Part shown: positions 6,371-29,541 of the stretch, in pieces
How the letters are laid out: every line of letters starts with the position of its first letter
Numbering within the stretch: the first letter of the stretch is position 1
Source of the DNA: a bacterium
GTDB lineage: Bacteria; Desulfobacterota; Deferrisomatia; Deferrisomatales; Deferrisomataceae
Assembly (NCBI GenBank): GCA_027021615.1
Contig: JALUTY010000085.1
Span: 1-29,541 of the forward strand
Reading direction: 5' to 3'
Length of the DNA stretch: 29,541 nt
Translations under genes and position numbers: made by a program
Notes under the pieces: generated by a model
The model's database searches: none
Seen by the model: the letters and a program-made list of their open reading frames with translations, nothing else
What the model was told of the DNA's origin: nothing

Positions 6371-6415
6371 GTTCCTAGCTTTCCAGCCTCCTAGCCTTCT
6401 AGCTTTCCAGCCTCC
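6371..6415. repeat. 8-nt-phased CTAG micro-array (units CTTTCCAG/CCTCCTAG/CCTTCTAG)
   Basis: Read directly: CCTAG|CTTTCCAG|CCTCCTAG|CCTTCTAG|CTTTCCAG|CCTCC. The same unit family occurs at 12637-12660, 21304-21351, 26033-26072 and 26788-26819. Confidence 0.75.
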
Positions 6416-12636: not shown

Positions 12637-12660
12637 CCTTCTAGCGTTCTAGCTTTCCAG
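12637..12660. repeat. 8-nt-phased CTAG micro-array (3 units)
   Basis: CCTTCTAG|CGTTCTAG|CTTTCCAG, in the nrdD-grx spacer. Confidence 0.6.
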
Positions 12661-12692
12661 CGGGTCGAAGGCCCTGAATACTGGAGGATCCC

Positions 12693-15402: not shown

Positions 15403-16347
15403 TCAGAACACCCACACGACGTTGAGCCAGGTGCTCGATCCCTCGGGCATGTTCTTGCCATCGAACTCCCAAAGTTGCTTGGCCACCACGCTGAACCGTC
15501 CCTGGTTCGGCCACCACTTGAGCCCAGGGCCGATCGCGGCCAGCCGGCTGCGGTCGGAGTTCTCTTTCCCGTCGATCTCGTCGTCGGTGGTCTGCCAATA
15601 GTAGAACCCGTTCACCCCGAACCGCCAGCCCGGCTTGGGGGACCATCCCACGGCCCAGTCGAAGTGGAACTCCTGGCCCGGGTCGAGATCCACCTCTTTT
15701 GTGCTGCCGGCCGGCAGGTACTCATCGTTGGTGGTGTTGAAGTCGTACATGAGCTTCACGGAGAAGTCGAACCCGTTCCACAGGTAGGTGGCTGCTAGCA
15801 CCGGCTCGAACGTCCAGTGGTTTCGCGACAGGAGCTGGGTGGATGCGTCCTCGTTGTCGTAGTTCCCGGTGGGGGCCCAGATGTCCACGGCGAACACGGT
15901 GTGGAAGTTCGGGCCGAAGTGCCACCCCAAAATGAACGGGCTGAAAATGATGTCACCGAGCCCTCCGCTGGACTCATCCACCAGGCTCGTGCCTCCGGCC
16001 TTCACATCCACGTCCGCGGTGTAGAAGGGAATGAAGGCGTGCGCCCCCCACGAGGCGCCCAGGATCTTGTAGGGGCTGACCCAGATGAACCGGGGGATCG
16101 CTGCGAACACGCTCGCGTCGAACTCCACGGGGGTCTTTTTGCCCTCGTTGTCCATGAGCCGGTCCTTGTTGATATAGACGAGATAGTTCTTGAAGTAGAT
16201 CCCGGGCGGGGGCAGGGCGCCCACCACGAAGTCCTCGGCTCCGTTGGGGTAGTGCTGGCCTCCGCCGGCTACGGCGGAGCCCGCGCACAGCGTGAGCCCC
16301 AGGACCAATCCGGTCCACCACCAGGTCATGCCGCGTCCTCTTCTCAT
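15403..16347 (-). CDS. outer-membrane beta-barrel channel, 'MetA-pathway of phenol degradation' (Phenol_MetA_deg-like) family
   Basis: ATG 16347 is preceded by AAGGAGGAAGG. There is a signal peptide (WWWTGLVLGLTLCAGSAVA), an N-terminal HYPNGAEDFVVGALPPPGIYFKNY block as I recall for this family, alternating aromatic/hydrophilic strands and a C-terminal aromatic residue (…VVWVF). Confidence 0.7.
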   Translation of the reverse strand: MRRGRGMTWWWTGLVLGLTLCAGSAVAGGGQHYPNGAEDFVVGALPPPGIYFKNYLVYINKDRLMDNEGKKTPVEFDASVFAAIPRFIWVSPYKILGASWGAHAFIPFYTADVDVKAGGTSLVDESSGGLGDIIFSPFILGWHFGPNFHTVFAVDIWAPTGNYDNEDASTQLLSRNHWTFEPVLAATYLWNGFDFSVKLMYDFNTTNDEYLPAGSTKEVDLDPGQEFHFDWAVGWSPKPGWRFGVNGFYYWQTTDDEIDGKENSDRSRLAAIGPGLKWWPNQGRFSVVAKQLWEFDGKNMPEGSSTWLNVVWVF

Positions 16348-16409: not shown

Positions 16410-17546
16410 CTACACCGGATCGGACCACCAGGGCTCGAACCGGTACGGGATGGGGGTTCCGTCCAGGCGGACCCGGGCGCCGCGGCTGTCCACGGGCACG
16501 GTGACGGAGCAGGTCACGGCCGAGGAGCCCTCCCAGCGTTTCCACTTCGCCCAGACCCCCGGGTCCCGGCTCAGGGCGAACACGGCCGGCCCCACCGAGC
16601 TCATGCCCACGATCTCGGCCCCCTCGTTTCGGAGCCGCTCCATGGTCGTCCAGACCTCCTTGCCCCGGTCGCCGTGGAGCTCGATCTCCGCCCTCTTGGA
16701 ACCTCCCTGGGACAGGTCCCAAAGCACGTCTCCCACGGCCCGGAGGTCGCCGGTGAGGGCGGCCGGCAGGAGGTCCATGAACACCCGGTACACCTTTTCC
16801 CGTGCCGCCTGCTCGTCCGCACGGCGGGCGGTTTGGACCAGAGATCGATACTCTGCCGCGCCCGACGAGACCTCGGGTGCGATCTGGGGCAGAATGAGCA
16901 GGGCCCGCAGGTCCTCGGGCAGGGCGACCCGTGCCAACAGCTCACATCGGTCCGACCCCACCACCAGACCCCCGTGCAGGCCGGCCATGGCGCCCACGTT
17001 GGTCTCGAACCCGGGCACCAGACGGGGCGGAGCCGAGGAGAGCTCCTCGCAGTAGTTGTGGGCGACCAGCTTGCGCAGGTCCCGCAGATCCAGGGGCCGT
17101 CCCAAGGCCTCGTTTAAGGCCAGGGCGGCCGCGGTCAGGGTTGCCACCGACGAGCCGAGCCCCATGTGCCGCCGGCCGTGGTCCCGGGTCTGGATCTCCA
17201 CCCCGCCGGGGTATCCGGTGAGGGTGAGGAAGAGGTGGGCCAGGTGCTGCCCCAGCAGGGGGCGGCTCCCCGTGGATCGAACCCCCGGGGCGTCGATCAG
17301 CGTGACCCGTGCCCGGGAGAACAGCCCCACCGCGAACCCCACCCCGCCGCCGCCGGGGCGGCCGAGGTCAAACCGGGTCATGTCCAACACCAGGGCGTGG
17401 AGCCGGCTCGGCACCTCGGCCTCGCACACCGTCCCGGCAGGTGAGGGCTCCACCGGCCGCAGATTTCCCCCCCACGCCACCGGCCAGACGAACCGGGACG
17501 GATCGCCGGGGGAGAAGGCCAGGGCCTCCAGGGACGGGCCAGTCAA
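16410..17546 (-). CDS. GHMP-kinase-superfamily protein, beta-ribofuranosylaminobenzene-5'-phosphate (beta-RFAP) synthase-like
   Basis: GHMP phosphate-binding motif HMGLGSSVATLTAAALAL. The N-terminal block PSRLHALVLDMTRFDLGRPGGGGVGFAV resembles the PSRLHFGLIDLNG..GR.DGG.G opening I recall for beta-RFAP synthases. Start: TTG 17546 has a perfect AGGAGG 7 nt upstream. The track ATG 17570 has no SD and lies only ~18 nt from the -12 element. Confidence 0.6.
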   Translation of the reverse strand: MTGPSLEALAFSPGDPSRFVWPVAWGGNLRPVEPSPAGTVCEAEVPSRLHALVLDMTRFDLGRPGGGGVGFAVGLFSRARVTLIDAPGVRSTGSRPLLGQHLAHLFLTLTGYPGGVEIQTRDHGRRHMGLGSSVATLTAAALALNEALGRPLDLRDLRKLVAHNYCEELSSAPPRLVPGFETNVGAMAGLHGGLVVGSDRCELLARVALPEDLRALLILPQIAPEVSSGAAEYRSLVQTARRADEQAAREKVYRVFMDLLPAALTGDLRAVGDVLWDLSQGGSKRAEIELHGDRGKEVWTTMERLRNEGAEIVGMSSVGPAVFALSRDPGVWAKWKRWEGSSAVTCSVTVPVDSRGARVRLDGTPIPYRFEPWWSDPV

Positions 17547-17587
17547 CAGGGCGCCTCCTGGACCATACATGGTTTTGTTCTGTAGTA

Positions 17588-17603
17588 TTCAAACATCGGG
17601 CCA
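17588..17603 (-). promoter_or_regulatory. candidate sigma-54 (-24/-12) promoter
   Basis: The minus strand reads TGGCCCGATGTTTGAA, against consensus TGGCAC-N5-TTGC. GG and TTG are correctly spaced; only the C of the -12 GC is replaced by A. It lies ~30 nt upstream of the AGGAGG of the GHMP-like gene, and a sigma-54 activator is encoded in the same gene string. Confidence 0.5.
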
Positions 17604-17782
17604 TCTCGTGGGGGGACGCAGGTGCATTCGGGGGGAGACGGCCGGGCGGCCCGGAGCCGATCCGTTCGGCGCCTCGTCAACTGCCGTTGAACCCGCTTGT
17701 TGGCTGCCTCTTGAGCGGATCTCACCCAGAGGGGCGGCCGTGGCGGTCGATCATAACATGAGAAATCAAACATAGGTAGGAA

Positions 17783-18895
17783 ATGACGATAAAAGGCCTG
17801 AAATACGACATTGGAGACGCACTGTGGGAAGGGGTCCCGTGCGCGGCGTTCGTAACCGACACTCGAGGACGGGTCGTGGGGTGGAACCCGGCTGCAGAGA
17901 TTCTGACCGGACGTCTGGCGCCGGATGTGGAGGGACGGCCGTGGCAGGAGGCCCTTGGTCGGCCGGACCCGGGGGGGGGGGCAGCTGACTCCCGGGGGAA
18001 CGCTTGGGTGGACACGGTGTGCGACGCCACCCGGGCGGACGGACGCCCCATGCGTCTCCGTCTCCGGTCCCGGCCCGTACGGGACCCGGCGGGCCGGCCC
18101 GCTGGCCGGCTGTGGCTGGCCACCGACCACTCCCTGCGGGACGCGGTGGACCGGAAGCTGGTTCAGTACGAGCGGCTGGCCACCTTGGGGGAGCTGGCCG
18201 CGTCCGTGGTGCACGAGGTGGGCAACCCCGTGTCGGTGATCCTGGGGTTCGCGGCGCTCCTCCAGAGCGAGACCGAGACCGACCCCGACGGATCGATCCG
18301 TCGCCGCATCTACGAAGAGGCACACCGATGCCGCACCCTGATCGACCAGCTGCTGGGCTACGCCCGCTCCGCAACGAGGGGAAGCGCGCCCGCGCCGGTG
18401 CGGCTGGCCGTGGTGGTGGGCGAGACCCTGCCCCTGGTGCGGCACCGCCTGCAGCGAGCCCAGGTGTCGGTGGACAGCCGTTTGCCCTCCGACCTGCCCT
18501 CCGTGTGGGGGGATGCGTCGGAGCTGAAGCAGGTCGTGCTGAACCTTTTGCTGAATGCGGCGGACGTGACGCCCCGCGGAGGGATGATCGAGGTTGTGGG
18601 CGACGTGGTGGAGCGGCAGGAGGAGAGAGGGGGGGACTCCCTTCTTGACCCGGTGCTGCGCCTGGAGCGCCAGACGCGGGTGAGGTTGCGGGTGGGAGAC
18701 CGGGGCCCCGGGCTCCGCGGCCAGGACCCGGAACGGTTCTTCGGACCGTTCGTGACCACCAAGGAGAAGGGCGGGGGATTGGGGCTCACCGTGTGCCGCC
18801 GCATCGTGGAGGCGTGGGGGGGGACCATCCGGCTCGAAGAGCGCGAGGGGGGAGGAGCCTGGGCCGTGGTGGAGCTTCCCGCACACGCCGGGTAA
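17783..18895 (+). CDS. cytoplasmic PAS-domain sensor histidine kinase (NtrB-like)
   Basis: No TM segments. The N-terminus is PAS-like (AAFVTDTRGRVVGWNPAAEILTG). H-box is ELAASVVHEVGNP, N-box LLLNAADV, G-boxes DRGPGL and GGGLGL. It is divergent from the GHMP-like gene. Confidence 0.85.
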   Translation: MTIKGLKYDIGDALWEGVPCAAFVTDTRGRVVGWNPAAEILTGRLAPDVEGRPWQEALGRPDPGGGAADSRGNAWVDTVCDATRADGRPMRLRLRSRPVRDPAGRPAGRLWLATDHSLRDAVDRKLVQYERLATLGELAASVVHEVGNPVSVILGFAALLQSETETDPDGSIRRRIYEEAHRCRTLIDQLLGYARSATRGSAPAPVRLAVVVGETLPLVRHRLQRAQVSVDSRLPSDLPSVWGDASELKQVVLNLLLNAADVTPRGGMIEVVGDVVERQEERGGDSLLDPVLRLERQTRVRLRVGDRGPGLRGQDPERFFGPFVTTKEKGGGLGLTVCRRIVEAWGGTIRLEEREGGGAWAVVELPAHAG

Positions 18896-18904
18896 CCCCT
18901 CCTC

Positions 18905-19188
18905 ATACCAAGTTGCGTTCAAACCAAGATCCGTCCGGGGGCCAGGGCAGGGGGCCTGGTTCCGGCCGTGCGGGAGTGCAGCATCCGCCTCACGCGGCCC
19001 CCGACACTCAGCCCGAGTGTCCCATGAACGGTAGAAAAGCGAACGTTGGCAATGCATTTCGGGTCACCGGCAGAGCGGGTATCGGCTGAGTGCCGGGGGC
19101 CGCGACTGTCGGAGCCACGCCCGGCGCTCCACCAGGCCCCTTGCCCCGCCGGTTCAGGGGTCTGATGGCCTTGAACGCAACTTGGTAT
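18905..19188. repeat. nested palindromic element R3 (~284 bp) filling a convergent gene gap
   Basis: Three concentric stems were read directly. Outer: 18905-18922 ATACCAAGTTGCGTTCAA with 19171-19188 TTGAACGCAACTTGGTAT (18/18). Middle: 18943-18960 CAGGGCAGGGGGCCTGGT with 19131-19148. Inner: 18996-19013 GGCCCCCGACACTCAGCC with 19084-19101 GGCTGAGTGCCGGGGGCC. The right arm overlaps the stop codon of the 19188 gene. Confidence 0.7.
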
Positions 19189-19736
19189 CAGCCCCCGCCG
19201 TAAAGGAGCTCTCGCAGCCGCCGAACCACCCGGGGCACCGCCTCCAGGTGCCGGATGGGGCACGGCAGGGTCCAGTCCTGCCAGGGGCCCAGGAGCTCGG
19301 CATAGGGATCTGCGCAGGCCCGGGAGAGCCGGAGGGGCACCTGCGGGAAATGCCGCTCTAGGGTCTGTCGCAGGCACGCCACCAGCCGGTCCCGCTCGGT
19401 CTCTCCCTCTGCATGGAGGACCAGGGCCGAGGTCCCGTACCGATCCCGCCGACCCCCCAGCTTGCCGTGGAGGTAGAGGTCCGGGTGGTCCTCGGCCAGC
19501 TGGCCGAGGATCTCCATGCAGGTTGTCTCGTCCGGGGCCGCGGCCACCACCTTCCAGCAGTCCCAGGCATGGGGCAGGTCGATCTCCGTCCGGTCCGTCT
19601 TCAGTTGGTCCAGCAGCCCGGCGAGGCACGGCAGGCACCGCTCGTGGATTCGGCGCTTCGTGCGTTCCATTCGGGGGTGGGTCTCGAAGCTCCACCACCC
19701 CTCCCGGGACACCCGGTGCCCGAAATGGACCTCCAT
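19188..19736 (-). CDS. hypothetical protein (182 aa), Cys/Trp/His-rich, no recognised domain
   Basis: Strong G/C at codon position 3 throughout. Start ATG 19736 (MEVHFGH) avoids overlap with the 61-aa gene but has no clear SD; ATG 19811 is an alternative. Contains CLPC and several isolated Cys/His. Confidence 0.55.
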   Translation of the reverse strand: MEVHFGHRVSREGWWSFETHPRMERTKRRIHERCLPCLAGLLDQLKTDRTEIDLPHAWDCWKVVAAAPDETTCMEILGQLAEDHPDLYLHGKLGGRRDRYGTSALVLHAEGETERDRLVACLRQTLERHFPQVPLRLSRACADPYAELLGPWQDWTLPCPIRHLEAVPRVVRRLRELLYGGG

Positions 19737-19759
19737 GGGAACGGGCCCGTCGGACCGGG

Positions 19760-19945
19760 CTACGGCGTTTTCGTCCCAGCAGGCGGCTCGAAATGGGCCC
19801 GGAGCACCCACAGGGTCCCCTCCATCCGGCGCACGTTCCGCTCCACCGCCGGGATGCCGTCCCCGGCCCGCTCCAGCTCCCTCAACGCCGAGGCCACCCG
19901 GTCCAACGCCTCGGCCACCTCACGGATCCGATCGTCCGGAGCCAT
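19760..19945 (-). CDS. hypothetical 61-aa helical protein, translationally coupled to the CoA ligase
   Basis: The ATG shares its A with the ligase stop (TGATG) and is preceded by AAGGAGGGAGG inside the ligase 3' end. Codon position 3 is G/C-rich. It is hidden in the track inside a longer out-of-frame ORF (19760..20368). Confidence 0.6.
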   Translation of the reverse strand: MAPDDRIREVAEALDRVASALRELERAGDGIPAVERNVRRMEGTLWVLRAHFEPPAGTKTP

Positions 19946-21288
19946 CACGCGCCTCCCTCCTTGCGAAGATCGTGGAACCTCCGGGCCTTCACCTGGTAGC
20001 GCGGCAGGCTGCCGTAGGGCTGGGGCTGGATGTCGAAGTTGAGCTGGGTCTTCCACCGGAGCCGGCTGGCCAGCTCCTTGAGCAGGCCGTCCCGGTCCGG
20101 CGGGGCCAGCCCGTCGGGCAGCTCCACCTTGAGGGTGATGTGATCCAGGTCGCCGCGCTTCTCCACGAAGATCTCGAACTCGCCGTCCAGCTCCTCGAAC
20201 GATCGGACCACCTCCTCCACGGTGACCGGGGAGAACAGCACCCCCTTCACCTTGGTGATGTGGTCCACCCGGCCGTGGACCCCCCCTTCGAGGATGCGCC
20301 AGGTGCGGCCGCATTCGCATCCGTCCGCGGCCCACATGGACACGTCCTTGGTGTCGAACCGCACGCACGGCTGGGCCCTCCGGTCGAAGGCGGTGATCAC
20401 GATCCGTCCCGGCACGCCGGGCCGGGTCACCGGGCGGTCGGAGTCAAGCTCCAGGAGCTCCACCAGGAACATGGACTCGATCACGTGCTGGCCCCCGGGC
20501 TGGTGCCGGCACTCGAACCCCCATGCGCCGACCTCGGTGGCGCCCACGTGGTCGTAGACGGGGCATCCCCAGGCGTCCTGCATGCGCTTCTTTGTCGTCG
20601 GAACCGAGGCCCCGGGCTCCCCGGCACAGGTGATCCGCCGGATGCCCCACTCCCGGGGGTCGGCGCCCAGGTCCTTGCGCGCGGTCTCGGCCATGCCCAG
20701 CACGTAGGTGGGGGTGGCCATGAAAGCGTTGGTCTTGAGCTCGCGCATCTTGAGCAGCCGCTCCCGGGTGCCCAGAACGCCCCCGGGGACCACCTCGCAC
20801 CCGAGCCGCTCGGCCCCGTAGTGGGCGGTCCAGAAGGCGATGAACACGTGGTAGCCGAAGGGGAAGAACACCCGGTCGGTGGGGCGGTACCCCTGGGCCC
20901 ACAGGATCGTGGCCCAGAGCTCCGAGAACCACTCCCAGTCGGCCCAGGTGTCGGGCTGGTACACGGGGGTGCCGGTGGTGCCCGAGGTCTGATGGTACTC
21001 GGTCACCTCCTCCAGGGGCACGCACAGGGTGTCGCCGTAGGGAAACGGGTCCGTGCCCTGGCACCGGTAGTCGTCCTTGGTCACCAGGGGCACCTTGGCC
21101 AGGTCGTCCCAGGTCCGCACGTCCTCCGGACGAAGGCCGGCCTCGTCGTACTTGCGGCGGTACATGGGGCTTCGCTCGTACACCCAGGCGAGCACCCGCC
21201 GGAACTTGGCCAGCTGGATCTCCCGGAGCCGGTCCGGGTCCAGGGTCTCGGTGATCGGGTTCCAGTACTCGGTCTCCGGGTACGGCAT
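19945..21288 (-). CDS. phenylacetate-CoA ligase (PaaK)-family aryl/acyl-CoA ligase
   Basis: 447 aa. N-terminal ...EIQLAKFRRVLAWVYERSPMYRRKY, AMP-binding core YHQTSGTTGTP, ATPTY, CAGEPG and VKG..FSP blocks are typical of the PaaK/F390-synthetase branch. ATG 21288 is preceded by GGAGAG. Confidence 0.85.
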   Translation of the reverse strand: MPYPETEYWNPITETLDPDRLREIQLAKFRRVLAWVYERSPMYRRKYDEAGLRPEDVRTWDDLAKVPLVTKDDYRCQGTDPFPYGDTLCVPLEEVTEYHQTSGTTGTPVYQPDTWADWEWFSELWATILWAQGYRPTDRVFFPFGYHVFIAFWTAHYGAERLGCEVVPGGVLGTRERLLKMRELKTNAFMATPTYVLGMAETARKDLGADPREWGIRRITCAGEPGASVPTTKKRMQDAWGCPVYDHVGATEVGAWGFECRHQPGGQHVIESMFLVELLELDSDRPVTRPGVPGRIVITAFDRRAQPCVRFDTKDVSMWAADGCECGRTWRILEGGVHGRVDHITKVKGVLFSPVTVEEVVRSFEELDGEFEIFVEKRGDLDHITLKVELPDGLAPPDRDGLLKELASRLRWKTQLNFDIQPQPYGSLPRYQVKARRFHDLRKEGGA

Positions 21289-21303
21289 GGTTTCTCTCCG
21301 AGG

Positions 21304-21351
21304 CTAGGAAGCTGGAAGGCTAAAAGGCTAGAAGGCTAGGAAGCTGGAAAG
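21304..21351. repeat. 8-nt-phased CTAG micro-array (6 units, purine-rich on + strand)
   Basis: CTAGGAAG|CTGGAAGG|CTAAAAGG|CTAGAAGG|CTAGGAAG|CTGGAAAG, starting 16 nt upstream of the ligase ATG. Confidence 0.8.
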
Positions 21352-21397
21352 CCAAAGACCTCCGCGATCTTTAAGCGCTGCGCCGTCACCACAAGTC

Positions 21398-21492
21398 GGG
21401 GATGCCTGGGGCCTGGTGGAGCGCCGGGCGTGGCTCCTACAGTCGCTGCATTCGGCACTCACGCACGGCCGAAACCAGGCCCCAGGCATCCC
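21398..21492. repeat. R3 core hairpin copy (~95 bp)
   Basis: GGGGATGCCTGGGGCCTGGT (21398-21417) pairs with ACCAGGCCCCAGGCATCCC (21474-21492). The interior (GGAGCGCCGGGCGTGGCTCCTACAGTCGC...) is the reverse complement of 19102-19140 and 18951-18980, i.e. the R3 middle stem without the ~125-nt inner insert. Confidence 0.65.
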
Positions 21493-21751
21493 TATTGACC
21501 CGGCGGACAAACAGGCGCTATCGCTCACTGCTCGGACCTGCCGGAGAGCCGGGCGCGGCCCCTTAACTCGCCGCGCAGCGCCTCCGACGCTCGGATCGCG
21601 AAATGGTTCGGATTCCACCGAGTTGTCATGAAACCAGCTCTTCGGTCCCGTGCCTGCGCGGCGAATCCCATGCCCGGCTTCGCGCCCGGCCTTTAGGCAG
21701 GTCCCTTGCCCCGCCCTCCGAGGTGCCGCGCTTATTTTGCCGCCAGGTTAA

Positions 21752-22025
21752 TACTAACTACCAACGGAACTATTGTCAGATCCCCGGCGTTCACAAGGGA
21801 ACCAGCGGGTGGGGGGCTGGTGGAGAGCCGGGCGCGGCCCCTTACGTCGCCGCGCCCTCACCCGGCCTGGATCGCTCTGTAAGTTCAGGAACTTCCGCCA
21901 CCAGCGCCCCGGCCTACCGGGCTGACAACGGCATGCGAAGGCGCGGCGAAGGGGATGCCGCACTCGCGCCCGGCCGGAACCAGTCCCCCACCCGCGTCCG
22001 GCAATACCTTCGTAGGCCTTAGTAA
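21752..22025. mobile_element. MITE-like foldback element R2, copy b (inverted relative to copy a)
   Basis: The reverse complement aligns end to end with 1517-1789, with the same termini (TACTAA...TTAGTA) and the same central GGAAGTTCCTGAACTT palindrome. Confidence 0.6.
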
Positions 22026-22073
22026 GCTTTGGCGCGGCTGGGGAGTTCCCGGCGGGCCGAAGGCCCGAAGGGC

Positions 22074-22670
22074 TCATCCTCCCGCCGACAGCACCTTCAC
22101 GTCGCTGCCCTTCCAGCGGCGGAACAGGTTGTGCTCGATGCGGAGCTGGTCGAGCACTTTGCCCACGGTCTGATCCACGATCTCCTCCACCGTGCGGGGG
22201 CGGTGGTAGAAGGCCACCATAGGGGGCAGGATCACCGCCCCGATGTCTGCGCACCGGCGGAGGATGTCCAGGTGCCCCTTGTGCAACGGGGTCTCCCGGA
22301 ACAGCAGGACCAGGGGCCGGCGCTCCTTCAGGGTCACGTCGGCCGCCCGCACCAGCAGGTTGTCATTGTACGAGTTGGAGATGGCCGAGGCGGTCTTCAC
22401 CGAGCAGGGGGCCACCACCATGCCCTCGGTCAGGAACGATCCGCTGGCAATGGCCGCTCCCACGTCCTCGGGGTCGTAGACCTTGGAGGCCAGGGCCTCC
22501 ACCCGCTCCGGGGTCCAGTCGCTCTCGAGCCGGATGTTGCGCCGGGCGGCCTTGGAGAGGATCAGATGGGTCTCCACCCCGAGCTCCCGGAGCACCTGCA
22601 AGAGCCGGATGCCGTACTGGGGGCCGGTGGCCCCGGAGATGCCAACCACCAATCTACGGGGTACGTTCAT
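22074..22670 (-). CDS. ubiX: flavin prenyltransferase UbiX (prFMN synthase)
   Basis: 198 aa. RLVVGISGATGPQYGIRLL, MVVAPCSVKT and RPLVLLFRETPLH blocks are present. The ATG overlaps the stop of the upstream UbiD paralogue (ATGA). Confidence 0.9.
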   Translation of the reverse strand: MNVPRRLVVGISGATGPQYGIRLLQVLRELGVETHLILSKAARRNIRLESDWTPERVEALASKVYDPEDVGAAIASGSFLTEGMVVAPCSVKTASAISNSYNDNLLVRAADVTLKERRPLVLLFRETPLHKGHLDILRRCADIGAVILPPMVAFYHRPRTVEEIVDQTVGKVLDQLRIEHNLFRRWKGSDVKVLSAGG

Positions 22671-24010
22671 CGCTCTCTCCTCGTGAGGAACCCAAGGGCC
22701 CGTTCCAATGCCGGCCCAGGGACTCGGGCCCGCCGTCCGGGTACCCGATGGTACCCGGTGGCGTCCACCCCTGCCTTGGCCGTGACCGCGTGCTCGTGGG
22801 CCGAAGGGTCGATGGGCTGGCCCTGGAGACCCGGCAGGATCACCCAGTCCCGGTCGGGCTGGGTCCGGCTCACCACGGACCACTCCACGTCCCAGGGGTC
22901 TTCCACGTCCACGTCCTCGGCCACGGCCACCACCTGCTTCACCCGGGTCTCGCGCAGCAGGATCTTCAGGAATGCCCGGATCCGGTCCGGCGTTGTCGGA
23001 GCGAGCCGGACCACCACCGAGGCGCCGTACGAGAACGGGACGGCCCGGACCGCCGTGACCTCGACCGGCACAGACCCGAGCAGGGCCTGCACGGAGGCCT
23101 CGGCCACCATGCCTAGGAGCCGGTCGGCCTCCCACCCGGTGGGGAGGAGGGCGTGGTACAGGGGGCTCTGCCGGCACCGGACCGATCTCACCACGAAGGT
23201 GGGGGTGGCGGAAAACGATACGTGGTACCCGCTGATCTCCCCGAACGGGCCGTCCGGGCGCTCGTCCGAGGGGTCGATCTCGCCCTCCAGCAGGATCTCG
23301 GCCTCGGCCGGCACCGGGATACCGGTGTGGGGGGCGCTCACCAGGTCCACGGGCTCCCCCCGCAGGGCGCCGGCCGCGGCCATCTTGTCCTCGCCGGCGC
23401 GCCCCTTGAGGGCTGCGGCGAGAAAGGTGAGCGGCTCGTGCCCCAGGGTCACAGCGGCCGGCAGGGGCCGGCCCGTCGCCTTGGCCTCGGCATACACCTC
23501 GGACAGGGGCGGGTTCAGCAGGGCCACGCCGAACCGGTCCGGCCCGCGCTGCTCCATGCGGTGGACGCCCCGGGCCACGGTGCCGGTGCGGGGATCCACG
23601 GCCGAGACCACGGCCGTAGTCAGGAACGCCCCGGAGTCGCCCTCGTAGTGGGTGAGCACGGGCAGAAGCTCCCCGATCTCTGCCGGCTCGATCGACCGTT
23701 CGAGCACGGGGCCGTCGGCCCCGGTCCGCGGCGGGACCTCGGCGGTGCACCGCTCCACGAACGCGCGGCCGGCCCGCTCCGGGGGCACGCCCAGGCCATG
23801 GGCCAGGACCTCGTCGTGGCACAGCACGTTCCCCACCACCGGCAGCGGGCCCCGGTCGGTCCGGCCCACGTGCACGGCTCGATGCTGCCGGGACGCCACG
23901 TGGAGCAGGGCCGCCACCTCGTGCCGCACCGACACGGGGCCCCCCACCTCCGCCAGGCGACCACAGGCCTGGAGGAACGCCACCACATCGGTCAGGTCGC
24001 GGAACGCCAC
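22667..24010 (-). CDS. UbiD-family protein, divergent third paralogue (447 aa)
   Basis: GTG 24010 is preceded by AGGGGAG, 13 nt after the stop of the 84-aa gene. N-terminus AFRDLTDVVAFLQACGRL is UbiD-like. The PFGE.SGY block is present as DGPFGEISGY. The N-x-G-x-Y-R signature is degenerate (ARGVHR). The track start at 24145 overlaps the upstream gene. Confidence 0.8.
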   Translation of the reverse strand: MAFRDLTDVVAFLQACGRLAEVGGPVSVRHEVAALLHVASRQHRAVHVGRTDRGPLPVVGNVLCHDEVLAHGLGVPPERAGRAFVERCTAEVPPRTGADGPVLERSIEPAEIGELLPVLTHYEGDSGAFLTTAVVSAVDPRTGTVARGVHRMEQRGPDRFGVALLNPPLSEVYAEAKATGRPLPAAVTLGHEPLTFLAAALKGRAGEDKMAAAGALRGEPVDLVSAPHTGIPVPAEAEILLEGEIDPSDERPDGPFGEISGYHVSFSATPTFVVRSVRCRQSPLYHALLPTGWEADRLLGMVAEASVQALLGSVPVEVTAVRAVPFSYGASVVVRLAPTTPDRIRAFLKILLRETRVKQVVAVAEDVDVEDPWDVEWSVVSRTQPDRDWVILPGLQGQPIDPSAHEHAVTAKAGVDATGYHRVPGRRARVPGPALERALGFLTRRER

Positions 24011-24023
24011 GATCCGTGCTCCC

Positions 24024-24278
24024 CTACCGCCACGCTTCCGGGATGGGGTCCACCTCCTCCACCACCCGGATCGACCAGGGCTCGCCCACCCATTGCCCGC
24101 GGCCCAGGCGGGGCCACAGCCTTTCCGGGTACTTGGAGGGCTCACTCGACACCTTGGCCCGGACCACCTGGCACCGGTACTTGGCCCGGCCCGGGGTGAG
24201 GTCCCGGATCACCAGGCGGATCTCCTCGTCCTGGGGGACCTCCTGCAGGTTCTCGAAGAACGCGTCGTACTCAGCCAT
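24024..24278 (-). CDS. 84-aa protein, candidate small (gamma-type) subunit of the UbiD carboxylase
   Basis: ATG 24278 is preceded by CAAGGAG. Codon position 3 is G/C-rich. Size (~10 kDa) and position between UbiD paralogues match the small subunit of phenylphosphate carboxylase. There are no Cys pairs, so it is unlike the BsdD/VdcD zinc-ribbon subunits. Confidence 0.6.
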   Translation of the reverse strand: MAEYDAFFENLQEVPQDEEIRLVIRDLTPGRAKYRCQVVRAKVSSEPSKYPERLWPRLGRGQWVGEPWSIRVVEEVDPIPEAWR

Positions 24279-24295
24279 GGTTCGGACTCCTTGCC

Positions 24296-24525
24296 GGTAA
24301 CTTCGGTCGTCGGTCGTCAGTCTGGGCCTTCGGCCATATCAGGGGCCAGAATTCAGAAGTCAGTAGACAGGGAGAAGGATCTTCGGTGCGTCGAGAGGAT
24401 CCCCCCGGGAAACCGAACTGCTTTTCGGGATTTCCTGTCTTCTGTCCGCTGAAATCTGTCTCCTGAACCGTCGGCCCCATGCCTCCGGCGTGAAGGCTTC
24501 GGACCAACAAACGTTACCCTTCCCC
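24296..24525. repeat. repeat family R1, copy b, filling the ubiD-small gene intercistronic gap
   Basis: Aligns with the reverse complement of 1270-1520. Shared blocks: GGTAACTTCGGTCGTCGGTCGTCAGTC, ATCAGGGGCCAGAA, TCTGTCCGCTGAAATCTGTCTCCTGAACCG and GGACCAACAAACGTTACCCTTCCCC. Confidence 0.7.
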
Positions 24526-24556
24526 GTTGTAGGGCTCCGCAGGGGCCTCACGGGGC

Positions 24557-26005
24557 TTATTCGGAAAACCCGTATGCCTTCCAGTTGGCCAGCACCTTGT
24601 CCCGGATCTCCTGGGGGTAGACCGTGTCGAACGCCACGAGGATCGGGATGTCGGAGGGCTGCCAGTCCCGCGGGAACAGGCAGTCGAACAGCACCTTGGC
24701 GCCCTTGCCCATGCGGCGCTCGGCCGGGGTGGCAAACGGGTTCAAAGGAGTGCCCACGTCCCCTTCGTACACGTGGATGCCGTTGACCGGATGGCATCGG
24801 GTGCTCAGGGCGTGGATCACCTGGTTCTTGTTGTAGATGTCGGTGTTCTCGTCCACCACCACCACCATGTGGAACCAGGGGCCCAGCTTGCTGCCGAACA
24901 CCAGGTTGGCGATCTGGCGGGCGATGCCGGTGTACGCGTGACGGGTGCCGATCACCACCAGGTGGTGGGTGGACTCGGGCCACATGTACACGCCGGTGAT
25001 CGGGATGCCCTGGCTCCGCAGGAGCTTCTCCATCTCGAGGCTCAGGGAGAACGACCGCAGGAGCTGGCCCTCGTCCGTGGGCACGCCCATGTTCGACACG
25101 GTGAGGATCGGGTTGTCCCGGAAGGTGATCGCCCGGATCCGGTACACGGTGCGCCGTTCCCGGGGCGAGGTGCGGTAGCCGGTGTACTCCCCGAAGGGGG
25201 CCTCCTCGAGCCAGACGCCCGGCAGCACCTCGCCCTCGATGATGATCTCGGCGTGGGCCGGCACCAGCAGGTCGGAGGTCTCGCACTTCACCACCTCCAC
25301 CGCCTCGCCCATGAGGAGGCTCGCGAACTCGTCCTCCGGGATCGGGGAGGGCGCGCAGGCGGCCACGCCGGACAGCGGGTCCATGCCGATCACCGTGGCG
25401 AACGGCATGGGCTGGTTCCGGGGCACGTACTTGTTGAAGAACATCTTGCCCATGTCGGAGAACGGCAGCACCGGGCCCACCATGGTCTTCTCGTCGAACA
25501 CCATCTGGCGGTACATGCCCCAGTTCACCTCTCCGGTGTCCGGGTCCTTGGCCACCACCATGTGCCAGGTGGCCAGGTACCGGCCGCCGTCGCCGTCGTG
25601 GACCATGGGCGCGGGCAGGTTGAACAGGTTGGCGTCGTCGCCCGTCCACACGTTCTGCTTGCACGGGGCCCGGCTGCGGTCCACCACCCTGGGCTTGAGG
25701 GGCTCGCCCCGCTCGGTGCGCTCCACATAGGCCCTGCCGATCTCCGGGATCGGGGTGGCGGCCGGAAGCCCCAGGGACACCGCCAGCTTCCGGTAGGTGG
25801 CCAGGGGCGCGCCCAGGGCCTCGAAGCCGGGGTAGTCCTTGATCTTCTTGAAGTGGGGCGACGGGCCCTGGAGCTCGCACACCCGCCGGACGATGGCCCC
25901 GAGCTCCAGGTCCCAGTCCACCTCGGGCTCGACCGTGACCAGGTCTCCGGTGGCCCGCAGGGCCTCGATGAACTCGCGGTTGTCCTTGTAGTAGCGGTAC
26001 GCCAT
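24557..26005 (-). CDS. UbiD-family (de)carboxylase subunit, phenylphosphate-carboxylase alpha/beta-like (482 aa)
   Basis: ATG 26005 is preceded by AAAGGGAG. UbiD signatures NWGMYR, EAPFGEYTGY and HMVVVVDENTDIYN are present. Confidence 0.85.
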   Translation of the reverse strand: MAYRYYKDNREFIEALRATGDLVTVEPEVDWDLELGAIVRRVCELQGPSPHFKKIKDYPGFEALGAPLATYRKLAVSLGLPAATPIPEIGRAYVERTERGEPLKPRVVDRSRAPCKQNVWTGDDANLFNLPAPMVHDGDGGRYLATWHMVVAKDPDTGEVNWGMYRQMVFDEKTMVGPVLPFSDMGKMFFNKYVPRNQPMPFATVIGMDPLSGVAACAPSPIPEDEFASLLMGEAVEVVKCETSDLLVPAHAEIIIEGEVLPGVWLEEAPFGEYTGYRTSPRERRTVYRIRAITFRDNPILTVSNMGVPTDEGQLLRSFSLSLEMEKLLRSQGIPITGVYMWPESTHHLVVIGTRHAYTGIARQIANLVFGSKLGPWFHMVVVVDENTDIYNKNQVIHALSTRCHPVNGIHVYEGDVGTPLNPFATPAERRMGKGAKVLFDCLFPRDWQPSDIPILVAFDTVYPQEIRDKVLANWKAYGFSE

Positions 26006-26144
26006 GGGGATCTCCCTTTCATGTAACTTCCGCTAGAAGGCTGGAATGCCAGGAGGCTAGAAGGCTTGGAATCCTGCCGGATTCCCATGCGTTCTAGGAA
26101 TCACCACGCCTCTTTGTCTCCACCTCACGGTCCGGAAAGCATGG
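26006..26144 (-). promoter_or_regulatory. conserved leader R4, copy a (contains CTAG micro-array 26033-26072)
   Basis: About 75-80% identical by eye to 26761-26898. Both abut a start codon and share CATGTAACTTCCGCTAG next to the RBS, plus CCGGATTCCC, TTCTAGG.ATCACCA.GCCTC and CTCCACCTCAC.GTCCGG. Confidence 0.55.
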
Positions 26145-26217
26145 TCTAGTTTCTAGTCTCTAGACGGCCCCGCAGGGGCCTGATGGAGCTTTCGTCGTGG
26201 AGCCGGGCTCTGTGGCC

Positions 26218-26760
26218 TCAGCCCCAGCCCATGTTCGCGATCTTCTCCACCAGGGCGCCCCATCGGCCCTGGGCCCTGAGGATGAACTCGGCCAGCTCCC
26301 GCAGCATGCCCTCGCCGCCGGCCCTGCGGGTGATGAGATGGGCCGCGTCCCGGACCTCGGGGACCCCGTTGGCCGGGCACACCGCGAATCCCACCCGGCG
26401 CATGGCGCCCAGGTCGATGATCTCGTCGCCCACGTAGCACACCTCGTCGGGGCCGATGCCGATCTCGGCCATGATCTCCTCCATCTTGGCCCACTTCTCC
26501 TTGGCCGCGTACACCCGCTTGATGCCCACCTCCTGGGCCCGGGCGAACACGATTTTGGACTTGCGGGTGAGCAGCGCCACCTCGATGCCCGACATCATCA
26601 GCACGTTGGCCCCGAACCCGTCGTCGTGGTGGAACACCTGGAACTTCACGCCGTCCTCGTTGAACAGGACCATGCCGTTCGTGAGCACGCCGTGGACGTC
26701 CAGGACCACCAACTTCACGCGCTTGGCCCGCTCGATCGCATCCATCATGTCGTAGGCCAT
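26218..26760 (-). CDS. KdsC-type HAD-superfamily protein, phenylphosphate-carboxylase delta-subunit-like (180 aa)
   Basis: ATG 26760 is preceded by AAAGGAGG. It is collinear with KdsC (LVVLDVHGVLTNG..., DGFG, GDEIIDLGAM, AGGEGMLRE). Motif I reads DVHG instead of DVDG. Confidence 0.85.
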   Translation of the reverse strand: MAYDMMDAIERAKRVKLVVLDVHGVLTNGMVLFNEDGVKFQVFHHDDGFGANVLMMSGIEVALLTRKSKIVFARAQEVGIKRVYAAKEKWAKMEEIMAEIGIGPDEVCYVGDEIIDLGAMRRVGFAVCPANGVPEVRDAAHLITRRAGGEGMLRELAEFILRAQGRWGALVEKIANMGWG

Positions 26761-26898
26761 GGAATGCCTCCTTTCATGTAACTTCCGCTAGGACGCTGGG
26801 AGGCTGGGACGTTAGGAGGTTTGAAAACCTCCCGGATTCCCGCGCCTTCTAGGCATCACCATGCCTCCTCGCCTCCACCTCACAGTCCGGGGGCATGG
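26761..26898 (-). promoter_or_regulatory. conserved leader R4, copy b (contains CTAG micro-array 26788-26819)
   Basis: See 26006-26144. The minus-strand sense contains hairpins AGGCATGGTGATGCCT and GGAGGTTTTCAAACCTCC, and several CCTCC anti-SD-like motifs upstream of the AAAGGAGG RBS. Confidence 0.55.
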
Positions 26899-27052
26899 GG
26901 ATCAGGAGTCAGAGGACAGACGTCAGTGGACAGGGCGTGGTCCCACGACGCCGCTTTGGCCCCAGTGTCTTTGCCCCTCTTCTGGCTCCTGTCCCCTGAA
27001 ACCCATGCCCCGCCGCCGATGGCCCCAGGACCACCAAGCGTTACCTTTCCTC
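26886..27052. repeat. repeat family R1, copy c (partial)
   Basis: CCGGGGGCATGGGGATCAGGAGTCAGAGGACAGACGTCAGTGGACAGGGCGTGGTCCCACGACGCCGCTTTGGCC...GGACCACCAAGCGTTACC aligns closely with the reverse complement of 1281-1450. Confidence 0.7.
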
Positions 27053-27099
27053 GTACCGGGCCTCGCAGGGGGACTGGAGGGGCTTTTCAGTAAGCTCTC

Positions 27100-28515
27100 T
27101 CAGCCGTCCAGCCCCAGCTCCTTCCAGCGTTTCTTGATCCGCTCCACCACCTCGGGCACCAGGGCCACCTCCACCGGCTTCTGCTCCCACTCGAACGGAA
27201 CGGTGGCGTCCAGCAGGATGCGGGAGGTGATGAGCTTGTTGGAGTCGGGGTCCAGGGCGGGGTCCAGGGGCGTGGAGCGGCCGCGCTGGATGATCTGGGT
27301 GTCCCGGGCCGGATCGAACCGGGTGGCCAAGGCCCACCAGACCCGGGGCAGGTCGTCGGCGCGCACGTCGTGGTCCACCACGATCACCCCCTTGGTGCCG
27401 TAGGTGCAGGTGTTGCTGGCCACCACCGCGGCCGCCACCTGGTTGGCGTGGCCGGGGTACATCTGGCGCACGCTCACGATGGCCCAGAACCGGCCGCAGG
27501 CCTCCGGCGGCAGGTACACCGACTCGATGCCGGGGATCCGCATCTTCTCCAGCTCGGTCCACAGCGTGGCCCCGCGCACGAACGCGAGCATCCAGTGGTT
27601 GTCGGTGACCGGGCGGCCCACGGACGTGGCCCACAGGATCGGCTTGTTCCGGTGGTACACGCGTTCGACCACCATGGAGGGTTTGGGAATGGGGTGGAAC
27701 AGCTCGTCGGTGTAGTACCCGGTGTACTCGCCGAACGGTCCCTCGGGCCGCAGATCGTCGGGGTCGATCCAGCCCTCGAGCACGATCTCCGCGTCGGCCG
27801 GGATCGGAAGGCCGGTGACCTTGCCCTGGGTGACCGTGACCGGCTCGCCCCGGAGCGACCCCACCACGTCGTACTCGCTGGCCTTGGCCACCATGGCGCT
27901 TCCCGCGAGCATGAGGAGGGGATCGCACCCGATCACCACGCAGGCGGGCATCTTCTGCCCGGCCTTCTTGTACTTCTTCAGGATGCGGTCGCCCCGCTTG
28001 CCCTTGAGGATCTGGACCCCGATGCGGTTCTTCTCCTGGGCCTGCATCCGGTAGGTGCCCAGGTTGATCTCACCGGTCTCGGGGTCGCGGGTCACCAGGA
28101 ACACGGCCGTGCCGATGTAGCGGCCGCCGTCCTTCTCGAAGAACCGGGGGGAGGGGAACCGGAAGATGTCCACGTGGTCGTCGCTGTACTCGTTTTCAAA
28201 CACCGGTCCCGACTCCACCTCCTGAGCCGGGATGATCTTGTCCACCGCGAGCTTCATCCACTCGCGGGTGAGCTCGCACAGGCTCAGATGGGTGGGTTTG
28301 CCCAGGGCCAGGGCCAGCCGCTGGGTGGTGGCGAACGCACCCGTGAACACGGGGCTGTCGTAATCCTTGACGTTCTCGAACAGGAGGGCCGGCCCCTCCT
28401 GTTCCTCCACGAGCTTGGCCACGTGGCTGAGCTCCAGGTCCCAGTCCACCTCGGCGCCGATCCGCTTGAGCTGCCCCTCTTCCTCGCAGCGGGCGATGAA
28501 GTCCCTGAGGTCCAT
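27100..28515 (-). CDS. UbiD-family (de)carboxylase subunit, phenylphosphate-carboxylase alpha/beta-like (471 aa)
   Basis: ATG 28515 (MDLRDFIARCEEEGQLKRI, a typical UbiD N-terminus) is preceded by GAAGGAGGGAG. NLGTYRMQ, EGPFGEYTGYY and GVIVVDHDV blocks are present. The track start at 28641 is an extension without an RBS. Confidence 0.9.
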   Translation of the reverse strand: MDLRDFIARCEEEGQLKRIGAEVDWDLELSHVAKLVEEQEGPALLFENVKDYDSPVFTGAFATTQRLALALGKPTHLSLCELTREWMKLAVDKIIPAQEVESGPVFENEYSDDHVDIFRFPSPRFFEKDGGRYIGTAVFLVTRDPETGEINLGTYRMQAQEKNRIGVQILKGKRGDRILKKYKKAGQKMPACVVIGCDPLLMLAGSAMVAKASEYDVVGSLRGEPVTVTQGKVTGLPIPADAEIVLEGWIDPDDLRPEGPFGEYTGYYTDELFHPIPKPSMVVERVYHRNKPILWATSVGRPVTDNHWMLAFVRGATLWTELEKMRIPGIESVYLPPEACGRFWAIVSVRQMYPGHANQVAAAVVASNTCTYGTKGVIVVDHDVRADDLPRVWWALATRFDPARDTQIIQRGRSTPLDPALDPDSNKLITSRILLDATVPFEWEQKPVEVALVPEVVERIKKRWKELGLDG

Positions 28516-28659
28516 GTCTCCCTCCTTCGCAAAAAATCGTTTGATGAGTTGCGACTCTAGCGCCCGGTGGAGGCGGGGTCCAATCATATGTTTTGCGTTG
28601 ATGTATAAGGTGGGGTTATGCTCTTGGTCGCAGGTCGTCACCCGCCACCCGTTACTGCC

Positions 28660-29541
28660 ATGCTCAACTTCAACCAGCTACGAACGTTCTACGAGGTCGC
28701 ACGGAGCGGAAGCTTTACCCGGGCGGCAGAGACCCTGTGCGTCACCCAGCCGGCCGTGTCGGGGCAGATTCGGGCCCTGGAAGAGGCCCTGGGGCTTCGG
28801 CTGTTCCGGCGTCGGGGGCGGAGCATGGTGCTGACCGAGGCGGGGACGCTGGTGTTCCGGCAGGCCGAGCGGGTGTTCGCCCTGGAGAGGGAGATCGAGG
28901 GGCTGGTGGAGGAGCTCCGGAACGTACGCCAGGGGCTGCTCAAGGTGGGCACCACCAAGACGTACGCCCGGTACGTGATGCCCGACATCCTGGGCCGATT
29001 CCACGCCGCATACCCCGGGATCCGGATCGTGCTGGACGAGGGGGCGTCCGCGGCGGTGGTCCGGTCGGTCCTCGAAGGCGGCAGCGAGATGGCCGTGGTG
29101 GGCCTGGCGGAACCGGTCCGGGGGCTGCGGTGCGTTCCGTTCCGGCGGGAGGAGGTGGTGCTGTTCGCCGCCCCGGGCCACCCCCTGGCGGGCCGGGGCG
29201 GGGTGGGGTTTTCGGAGCTGGCGGGGGAGCTGATGGTCCTCAAGGAGGAGGGCTCGACCACCCGCACCCTGGTGCGCGATGCCTGTCGGCGGCACGGTGT
29301 CTCGCCCAAGGTGCTGGTGGAGACCAGCAACCTGGAGTTCATCAAAGACGTGGTGGCCCGGGGGGAGGGGATCTCGTTCTTGGTTCGGTGCGCGGTGGAG
29401 GAGGAGCTGAGGGCGGGGAAGGTGGTGGAGATCCCGCTCCGGGACGAGCGCCTATGGCTGGACGTGTTCATCGTGTGCCCGGAGCCGGACGTGCTCTCCC
29501 CGGCCGCGCGGGCGTTCCTGGAGATCCTGGAGAAAAGCTAG
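28660..29541 (+). CDS. LysR-type transcriptional regulator, divergent from the UbiD operon
   Basis: ATG 28660 gives MLNFNQLRTFYEVARSGSFTRAAETLCVTQPAVSGQIRALE, a canonical LTTR wHTH, followed by a C-terminal substrate-binding domain. The stop is at 29539-29541. Confidence 0.9.
   Translation: MLNFNQLRTFYEVARSGSFTRAAETLCVTQPAVSGQIRALEEALGLRLFRRRGRSMVLTEAGTLVFRQAERVFALEREIEGLVEELRNVRQGLLKVGTTKTYARYVMPDILGRFHAAYPGIRIVLDEGASAAVVRSVLEGGSEMAVVGLAEPVRGLRCVPFRREEVVLFAAPGHPLAGRGGVGFSELAGELMVLKEEGSTTRTLVRDACRRHGVSPKVLVETSNLEFIKDVVARGEGISFLVRCAVEEELRAGKVVEIPLRDERLWLDVFIVCPEPDVLSPAARAFLEILEKS

Follow-up and report, generated by a model that had tools for sequence, protein, structure and literature searches.

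The window considered here, by which is meant the whole stretch of 29,541 nucleotides (nt; approximately 70% G+C) from contig JALUTY010000085.1 of the Deferrisomataceae assembly GCA_027021615.1, very probably carries the carboxylase half of the classical locus for anaerobic phenol catabolism, its source being a bacterium closely related to Deferrisoma camini. Its core consists of six minus-strand genes between positions 22074 and 28515, encoding a PpcB-like UbiD protein, a KdsC-like HAD protein, a PpcA-like UbiD protein, a protein of 84 amino acids (aa), a third UbiD paralogue and UbiX, from which a LysR-family regulator gene diverges at 28660. All of them lie where the initial annotation, made from the sequence alone, had placed them, down to the UbiX start codon that overlaps the stop codon of the third ubiD as ATGA. 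That annotation had read the genes as a phenylphosphate-carboxylase-type subunit set accompanied by UbiX, LysR and a neighboring PaaK-type ligase at 19945–21288, and this much stands: the equivalog cut-offs for PpcB and PpcA and the Phenyl_P_gamma cut-off are passed, and the ligase has the AMP-binding domains expected of it.

Carboxylase subunits and the synthase genes of relatives

Phenol clusters combining phenylphosphate synthase (pps) and phenylphosphate carboxylase (ppc) genes have been characterized in Thauera aromatica and Aromatoleum aromaticum. As a reference, the PGAP-annotated phenol cluster on plasmid pAZKH of Azoarcus sp. KH32C (NC_020548) was found by tblastn of plasmid records, and the classical cluster order was taken from this record and from secondary papers. 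Families were assigned with curated NCBIfam equivalog hidden Markov models and their cut-offs, plus Pfam; the domain matches of the locus proteins have E-values between 1e-17 and 1e-210, and chance is thus no concern for these assignments. The beta subunit (PpcB) is 62% identical to its Azoarcus homolog and falls into the same 90% cluster as WP_025322336 of D. camini, which RefSeq names phenylphosphate carboxylase subunit beta, and the alpha subunit (PpcA) is 59% identical to Azoarcus PpcA, with WP_025322338 of D. camini bearing the RefSeq name phenylphosphate carboxylase alpha subunit. The gamma subunit passes its Pfam model, reaches 62.5 bits with the stricter TIGR02725 (cut-off 135.55), and shares with Azoarcus PpcG 38% identity, the same position and an RLGRGQ motif; D. 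camini WP_025322339 is named phenylphosphate carboxylase gamma in RefSeq. Ratios of nonsynonymous to synonymous substitutions (dN/dS) relative to Deferrisoma palaeochoriense are 0.10–0.14 for the carboxylase subunits, which are thus under purifying selection.

For the delta subunit, TIGR02726 (phenyl_P_delta) is the best match but is statistically tied with KdsC, and the KdsC subfamily model TIGR01670 passes; the protein is 43% identical to Azoarcus PpcD and is encoded at the same place, between ppcB and ppcA. In the alignment, motif I reads DVHG and motif IV GDE, against DVDG and GDD in Azoarcus PpcD and in Escherichia coli KdsC. DVHG therefore places a His where the HAD general acid/base, the second Asp of motif I, would stand, and the DVHG/GDE change is common to D. 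palaeochoriense, to the related loci L088 and L090, and to both Desulfosarcina copies. Across the six core proteins, alpha, beta, gamma (by Pfam) and UbiX pass their models, and delta (TIGR02726), gamma (TIGR02725) and the third UbiD (TIGR00148) remain under the cut-offs.

The Azoarcus KH32C cluster comprises a divergent sigma-54 regulator gene, ppsA for a phosphoenolpyruvate (PEP)-utilizing enzyme, ppsB for a PEP/pyruvate-binding protein, a CBS gene, ppcB, ppcD, ppcA, ppcG, ubiD, ubiX, and genes for a DUF120 protein, a NUDIX protein, an AMP-binding protein and a transporter. The order beta, delta, alpha, gamma, UbiD and UbiX is identical in the window, at 38–62% identity. Likewise, the Azoarcus cluster has a PaaK-type ligase and a MetA-type porin, and homologs of its DUF120 and ppsA/ppsB genes are found in the window's relatives. 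Differences do exist: in Deferrisoma-type loci, a divergent LysR gene separates the pps genes from the ppc genes, a PAS kinase and a sigma-54 response regulator take the place of the one-component sigma-54 regulator, and the CBS-domain PpsC of Rhodocyclales is lacking, ppsB being followed in the relatives by DUF120 and HAD genes. The HAD gene stands in place of the Azoarcus NUDIX gene, although L088 has a NUDIX gene upstream of ppsA, and a GHMP-like gene and two small proteins are extra.

No PEP-synthase-like gene is present within the window, which is an edge effect, because the window and its contig end right after LysR: the LysR stop codon forms the last three bases of the window, and the source contig (29,676 nt) terminates approximately 135 nt farther on. 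Another contig, L001, is 99.99% identical to the window and extends only 149 nt further; these nucleotides are without a match in any compared locus, L002 and D. camini included, and an exact 42-mer from the LysR 3′ end has no match among JGI metagenome contigs, leaving no bridging contig. D. camini S3R1 (GCA_000526155, JAFN01000001 positions 1603726–1625141) is collinear with window positions 16557–29541 at 92–96% nucleotide identity, with its proteins in the same 90% clusters, and, unlike the window, it shows the continuation: ppsA (613 aa), ppsB (366 aa), DUF120, HAD, LysR (divergent), ppcB, delta, ppcA, gamma, UbiD, UbiX, ligase, the 61-aa and 182-aa proteins, kinase (divergent) and GHMP. 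The same pps module adjoins LysR in L002, a contig of a metagenome-assembled genome (MAG) with 93–97% nucleotide identity, and ppsA-ppsB also directly follow LysR in L088, L083, L085/L086 and L090/L091. PpsA of L002 has a C-terminal PEP-utilizers mobile domain and PpsB a PPDK_N domain, the same split architecture as in Azoarcus, to whose proteins they are 63% and 51% identical, respectively. LysR itself is found at the same place in D. camini, D. palaeochoriense, L002, L088 and L090. Between about 6.4 and 28.8 kb, the window is collinear with D. palaeochoriense, genes for NrdD/NrdG, an ECF sigma factor and thioredoxin included. The sequence just past the LysR stop differs between D. camini and the window's strain, and the window locus is a different strain or species-level variant of the D. 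camini locus. Given these observed gene identities, order and synteny, we infer the enzyme activities, the substrate, which would be phenol or a close phenolic analog, and the adjacency of pps genes in this strain.

These loci also bear on whether the genes could encode a synthase-independent aryl carboxylase, as proposed for benzene or naphthalene. Such an enzyme would accord with a window that holds no synthase gene but several UbiD paralogues, UbiX and a PaaK-type ligase. Nevertheless, ppsAB adjoin LysR in each of the five related lineages with contigs that span this junction, the gamma and delta subunits, which are specific to the phosphate-ester mechanism, are present, and the large subunits classify as PpcA and PpcB, beyond generic UbiD, such that this explanation is largely refuted already and has next to no likelihood. 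The initial annotation, which had the enzyme type right, went astray in regarding the substrate as open and the locus as unusual. Its remark that no synthase is in view is correct for the window, but it loses its force as a ground for an open substrate when ppsAB lie directly past LysR in relatives; a look beyond position 29541 yields just 149 unmatched nucleotides in the strain itself, and D. camini and other relatives show that there the synthase is not truly missing. The gene order that it took to differ from ppc is that of the annotated ppcB-ppcD-ppcA-ppcG-ubiD-ubiX genes of Azoarcus. As for the partners deemed unusual, the GHMP-like protein, kinase, sigma-54 regulator and two small proteins are conserved in the clade, and the third UbiD, UbiX, ligase and porin belong to the classical cluster. 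The substrate-open view thus fails because all three of its reasons do (an edge artifact, an identical order, and conserved or classical partners); ppc synteny with pps just outside the window, which the annotation itself had named as the mark of an ordinary phenol pathway, is what the nearest relatives display.

A different question is whether the same enzyme architecture serves another substrate, such as catechol, hydroquinone, cresol, or aniline via phenylphosphoamidate. Specificity is not fixable from sequence, identity to the betaproteobacterial reference is only 38–63%, the delta subunit has an altered catalytic motif, and Desulfatiglans anilini recruits pps/ppc-like proteins for aniline (PMC7500099). 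Yet the aniline system of D. anilini consists of two beta-type subunits without gamma or delta (PMC7500099), whereas alpha, gamma and delta are all in the window; in addition, alpha and beta exceed the phenylphosphate carboxylase equivalog thresholds, and the complete accessory set of phenol clusters is conserved. Another substrate is accordingly considered unlikely, and phenol is preferred.

Phenol clusters of the strict-anaerobe type, as in Geobacter metallireducens and D. anilini, contain a beta homolog only, and D. anilini has no gamma (PMC6114531). The window shares with them a strictly anaerobic host lineage but differs in having the full alpha/beta/gamma/delta set. Among the best 80 PpcB-like loci in GTDB species genomes, most Desulfobacterota have LysR, ppsA, ppsB, ppcB and UbiX without alpha, gamma and delta, this ppcB-only pattern being found at approximately 60 other loci. 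The full set is common nevertheless: PpcA homologs with 64–87% identity occur in Desulfosarcina, Syntrophorhabdales, Smithellaceae, Chloroflexi and others, many already annotated as PpcA. Desulfosarcina variabilis (L092; CP159846, 9320096–9341541) has a ppc-type "PpcA2" locus with two delta subunits, two alpha-type UbiDs, gamma, a ligand-less UbiD, UbiX, FMN_dh, HAD and DUF120, as well as a PpcB-like gene that diverges from them and is accompanied by LysR; the 10 kb flanking the locus on each side contain no pps gene.

It should be noted that several points weigh against assigning the window to phenol carboxylation. The delta and gamma subunits score under the strict NCBIfam equivalog cut-offs, and delta has a His where the HAD general acid/base Asp is expected. 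The adjacency of pps genes in the window's own strain is extrapolated from relatives, its contig ending approximately 135 nt past LysR, and L097, a Deferrisomatales MAG, has a pps module without LysR-ppc alongside. No gene for 4-hydroxybenzoyl-CoA reductase or benzoyl-CoA reductase is in view, no report of phenol use by Deferrisoma was found in the literature searched, and the substrate cannot be fixed by sequence alone.

The third UbiD paralogue and its partner UbiX

The third UbiD begins with a GTG codon at 24010, 13 nt past the gamma stop, and is encoded in synteny with the Azoarcus UbiD gene located after ppcG (38% identity); UbiX is 56% identical to that of Azoarcus. The best solved relative of the third UbiD is HmfF (PDB 6h6x; 191 bits). 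In Aspergillus niger Fdc1, N168, H191 and E233 are the ligands of Mn and of the phosphate of prenylated flavin mononucleotide (prFMN); the Fdc1 landmark sequence has the expected residues at all six numbered positions. MAFFT alignments place Ala, Pro and Lys at positions 168, 191 and 233 of the third UbiD in the window, L002, L003, L088 and L090; Arg, Pro and Lys are found in Desulfosarcina (L092), and Gly, Pro and Lys in Azoarcus. R173 and E282 are retained, as are N168, R173, E233, E277 and E282 in PpcA and PpcB. A HMMER alignment to HmfF, which retains the ligands, independently gives the same three substitutions. In an exhaustive search, nearly all of the approximately 35 nearest 50%-identity cluster representatives carry [A/G/S]-R-P-K at positions 168/173/191/233, and more distant relatives have the canonical N-R-H-E. 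Besides L002 and L003, orthologs are encoded at L088 12150–13493, L090 11733–13085, L092 11724–13091 and L094 13777–15123.

Could the third UbiD and UbiX constitute a separate decarboxylase for 4-hydroxybenzoate or another hydroxyarylic acid beside the carboxylase? Pfam gives the protein a full UbiD fold, its translation is coupled to that of UbiX, and its nearest solved relative is a true decarboxylase (of 2,5-furandicarboxylate). However, the third UbiD and its orthologs are without the N168, H191 and E233 ligands, no VdcD- or LpdD-like small subunit follows it, and its dN/dS of 0.34, compared with 0.10–0.14 for its neighbors, means that it evolves approximately three times faster. Moreover, the three UbiDs reach 308.8, 239 and 172.3 bits with the VdcC model, all far under the cut-off of 650, with the third at the low end (172 bits), UbiX reaches 237.5 bits with the VdcB model (cut-off 290), and a VdcD-like gene is absent from the locus, such that by model scores and gene content the proteins do not belong to the VdcBCD/BsdBCD hydroxyarylic acid decarboxylases. 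A separate decarboxylase is therefore very improbable, and by ligand and model-score criteria the third UbiD is not a canonical prFMN/Mn-dependent UbiD decarboxylase. Decay into a pseudogene was also considered and ruled out, as the frame is intact, dN/dS is 0.34 and the motifs are conserved across phyla.

Judged from these alignments, the third UbiD represents a distinct UbiD subfamily without Mn/prFMN ligands, found in phenol clusters, and its role is probably accessory rather than catalytic. A function in cofactor handling or as a chaperone is a reasonable hypothesis. To our knowledge, no prFMN chaperone other than LpdD has been described, and LpdD is unrelated in sequence to the third UbiD. 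As a chaperone of prFMNH2, it is an example of a dedicated accessory protein that handles prFMN for a UbiD system (PMC10865409). Across phyla, a variable set of flavin- and phosphate-related genes accompanies pps/ppc/UbiX, namely DUF120 (CTP-dependent riboflavin-kinase-like), HAD (often fused to DUF120), NUDIX, PNPOx-like, Flavin_Reduct and FMN_dh; it is located at L002 3180–4317, L085 8473–9546, L090 5338–6972, L097 13139–14721, L094 15734–16736 and L092 13685–16563. Such a set fits a dedicated supply module for flavin mononucleotide, dimethylallyl monophosphate (DMAP) and prFMN. It is tempting to speculate, with considerable reserve, that the third UbiD is a non-decarboxylase founding a ligand-less subfamily and that, coupled to UbiX and together with the DUF120 protein and the HAD/NUDIX phosphatase, it makes, delivers or matures prFMN for the Ppc alpha and beta subunits under strict anoxia; this proposal is doubtful but, if true, would bear on how UbiD enzymes become active without O2.

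Neighboring genes, spacers and repeats

The features of the locus are compiled in Table 1.

Table 1. Genes and spacers of the phenylphosphate carboxylase locus and its surroundings, with the model matches on which assignments are based.
Feature	Position	Strand	Size	Model matches and remarks
LysR-family regulator	28660..29541	+	293 aa	HTH_1 and LysR_substrate domains; start ATG 28660; divergent from ppcB
LysR-ppcB spacer	28516..28659		144 nt	box ATAACCCCACCTTAT and motif GCAAAACATATGATTGGAC
ppcB, beta subunit, UbiD family	27100..28515	-	471 aa	TIGR02724 697.7 bits (cut-off 468.95)
ppcD-type delta subunit, KdsC-like HAD phosphatase	26218..26760	-	180 aa	TIGR02726 146.2 bits, under cut-off 281.95
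ppcA, alpha subunit, UbiD family	24557..26005	-	482 aa	TIGR02723 688.5 bits (cut-off 564.6)
Gamma subunit	24024..24278	-	84 aa	PF09662 Phenyl_P_gamma 60.9 bits (cut-off 25)
Third UbiD paralogue	22667..24010	-	447 aa	Pfam UbiD_N, UbiD and UbiD_C; TIGR00148 214.8 bits, under cut-off 244.85
UbiX flavin prenyltransferase	22074..22670	-	198 aa	NF004685 256.4 bits (cut-off 188); TIGR00421 246.5 bits (cut-off 108.9)
UbiX-ligase spacer	21289..22073		785 nt	dispersed repeats: octamer array 21295-21374, 220-nt element 21534-21753, 267-nt hairpin-forming element 21759-22025
PaaK-type aryl-CoA ligase	19945..21288	-	447 aa	AMP-binding and AMP-binding_C_2; TIGR02155 229.9 bits, under cut-off 646.3
Two conserved proteins	19188..19945	-	61 aa (19760-19945) and 182 aa (19188-19736)	past ligase
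Soluble PAS histidine kinase, AtoS-like	17783..18895	+		PAS, HisKA, HATPase_c; conserved position
GHMP-superfamily protein	16410..17570	-	386 aa	GHMP_kinases_N; NF040726 58 bits, under cut-off 328
Outer-membrane channel, Phenol_MetA_deg family	15403..16347	-		PF13557 221.4 bits
Sigma-54-dependent response regulator, AtoC/NtrC type	13889..15346	-		Response_reg, Sigma54_activat, HTH_8; conserved position

The PaaK-type ligase shares 39% identity with the AMP-binding protein encoded in the Azoarcus phenol cluster and is a candidate 4-hydroxybenzoate-CoA ligase. The phenol-degradation queries from T. aromatica (ppsαβγ, ppcαβγδ and ORF7-11/13-14) offer a parallel: the best D. anilini match of ORF14 is a phenylacetate-CoA ligase taken as 4-hydroxybenzoyl-CoA ligase, both being of the PaaK type (PMC6114531), and that of ORF8 is the gene called ubiX-like in the later aniline paper (PMC6114531, PMC7500099). 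The porin is 37% identical to the "transporter" that ends the Azoarcus cluster.

The two small proteins have no Pfam or NCBIfam match. The 61-aa protein is helical with a PAVERN..RM.GTL motif, the 182-aa protein has conserved cysteines in CLPC, DCWK and PCP, and orthologs of both occur in D. camini, D. palaeochoriense, L088 and L090/L091. In the same four lineages, the order ligase, 61-aa protein, 182-aa protein, PAS histidine kinase (divergent), GHMP-like protein, (porin) and sigma-54 regulator is kept. By this conservation, the kinase, GHMP-like, sigma-54 and small-protein genes are lineage-specific additions to a standard locus and not signs of another pathway.

In four Deferrisoma-type lineages, the GHMP-like gene comes after the kinase gene, in a group of genes whose last member encodes the sigma-54 regulator. 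Its product shares the GHMP fold with ForT, a C-glycoside synthase of formycin biosynthesis dependent on phosphoribosyl pyrophosphate (PRPP), and with beta-RFAP synthase. In the AlphaFold model (mean confidence, pLDDT, of 92), the ForT-PRPP structure (6yqq) leads the top fold matches by TM-score (0.63–0.65 normalized to the query and 0.73–0.76 to the target), with homoserine kinase first by E-value, but identity to ForT is only 18%. NCBIfam matches to beta-RFAP synthase are weak, and relatives in sequence, annotated as beta-RFAP synthase or GHMP kinase, occur in methanogens and Desulfotomaculia; the neighbors of the Desulfoscipio gibsoniae relative are PRAI, ADH and DeoC genes. A more tentative idea is that the protein might C-ribosylate 4-hydroxybenzoate or phenol, for example to produce a signal for the adjacent two-component system.

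Within the LysR-ppcB spacer, ATAACCCCACCTTAT at 28605–28619 is a box of the T-N11-A type (ATAA-N7-TTAT), and the 19-nt motif GCAAAACATATGATTGGAC lies at about 28575–28595. D. camini, D. palaeochoriense and L088 conserve both, L090 does so partly, and the two are candidate LysR operator and promoter elements. A search for sigma-54 promoters (TGGCAC-N5-TTGCW, up to two mismatches) returned 6 matches against 9 expected by chance, none convincing upstream of ppcB or the ligase gene, and an Rfam scan of the window gave no match.

Dispersed repeats abound between the genes of this genome and make up the UbiX-ligase spacer. The 267-nt element exists in two inverted copies (21759–22025 and 1517–1783) that are 93% complementary, is approximately 85% conserved at the syntenic spacer of D. 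palaeochoriense (L095 6223–6473), and folds as one long imperfect hairpin (z = -4.2) without an Rfam match; it may be an element like a miniature inverted-repeat transposable element (MITE) or a structured RNA. Tandem arrays of period 8 (GCTAGAAG / GCTGGAAG and variants) are intergenic, at 21295–21374, 26024–26079, 26787–26826, 6375–6413 and 12639–12662, three of them just upstream of the start codons of ligase, ppcA and delta. A role as strand-specific 5′-untranslated-region elements was ruled out, as the 6375–6413 copy is opposite in orientation relative to its neighboring gene. The spacers inside the ppc gene set (24279–24556, 26006–26217 and 26761–27099) measure 278, 212 and 339 nt, similar to those of D. 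camini but against 12, 26 and 139 nt in D. palaeochoriense; the additional nucleotides correspond to repeats at 1236–1474 and 25997–26135 / 26752–26890. The L002 spacer past LysR contains a copy of the 220-nt repeat of window positions 21534–21753. Three independent assemblies, namely the window's contig, L001 and D. palaeochoriense contig BAAHXI010000003 (at its start), all end no more than approximately 150 nt beyond the LysR stop. Dispersed repeats probably break assemblies just past LysR, which plausibly explains why they end there.

Proposed pathway and implications

Reportedly, the mechanism of the Thauera carboxylase was described by Schühle and Fuchs (2004), and it is the basis for assigning the steps here. 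Phenol would probably enter through the MetA-type porin and be phosphorylated by PpsAB, whose genes are expected just past LysR, outside the window. The KdsC-like delta subunit would then cleave the phosphate ester, and the two UbiD subunits alpha and beta, together with the 10-kDa gamma subunit, would add CO2 to phenolate at the para position, yielding 4-hydroxybenzoate, which the PaaK-type ligase would convert to its CoA ester. UbiX would provide prFMN, and expression would be controlled by LysR together with the PAS kinase and the sigma-54 response regulator. The division of labor among the subunits is assigned by analogy with the Thauera enzyme, following the mechanism as summarized in PMC6114531.

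The locus as such represents anaerobic phenol degradation as textbooks describe it, and automatic annotation in RefSeq already covers its near-identical counterpart in D. camini. The bearing of the window locus on the organism lies in the prediction that thermophilic, Fe(III)-reducing Deferrisoma of hydrothermal vents can carboxylate phenol. The locus also shows that a strictly anaerobic lineage carries the full set of alpha, beta, gamma and delta subunits, in place of the beta-only form described for Geobacter and Desulfatiglans. In addition, the ligand-less third UbiD, the delta subunit with His for Asp and the ForT-like GHMP protein might help to explain the assembly and activation of UbiD carboxylases in anaerobes.

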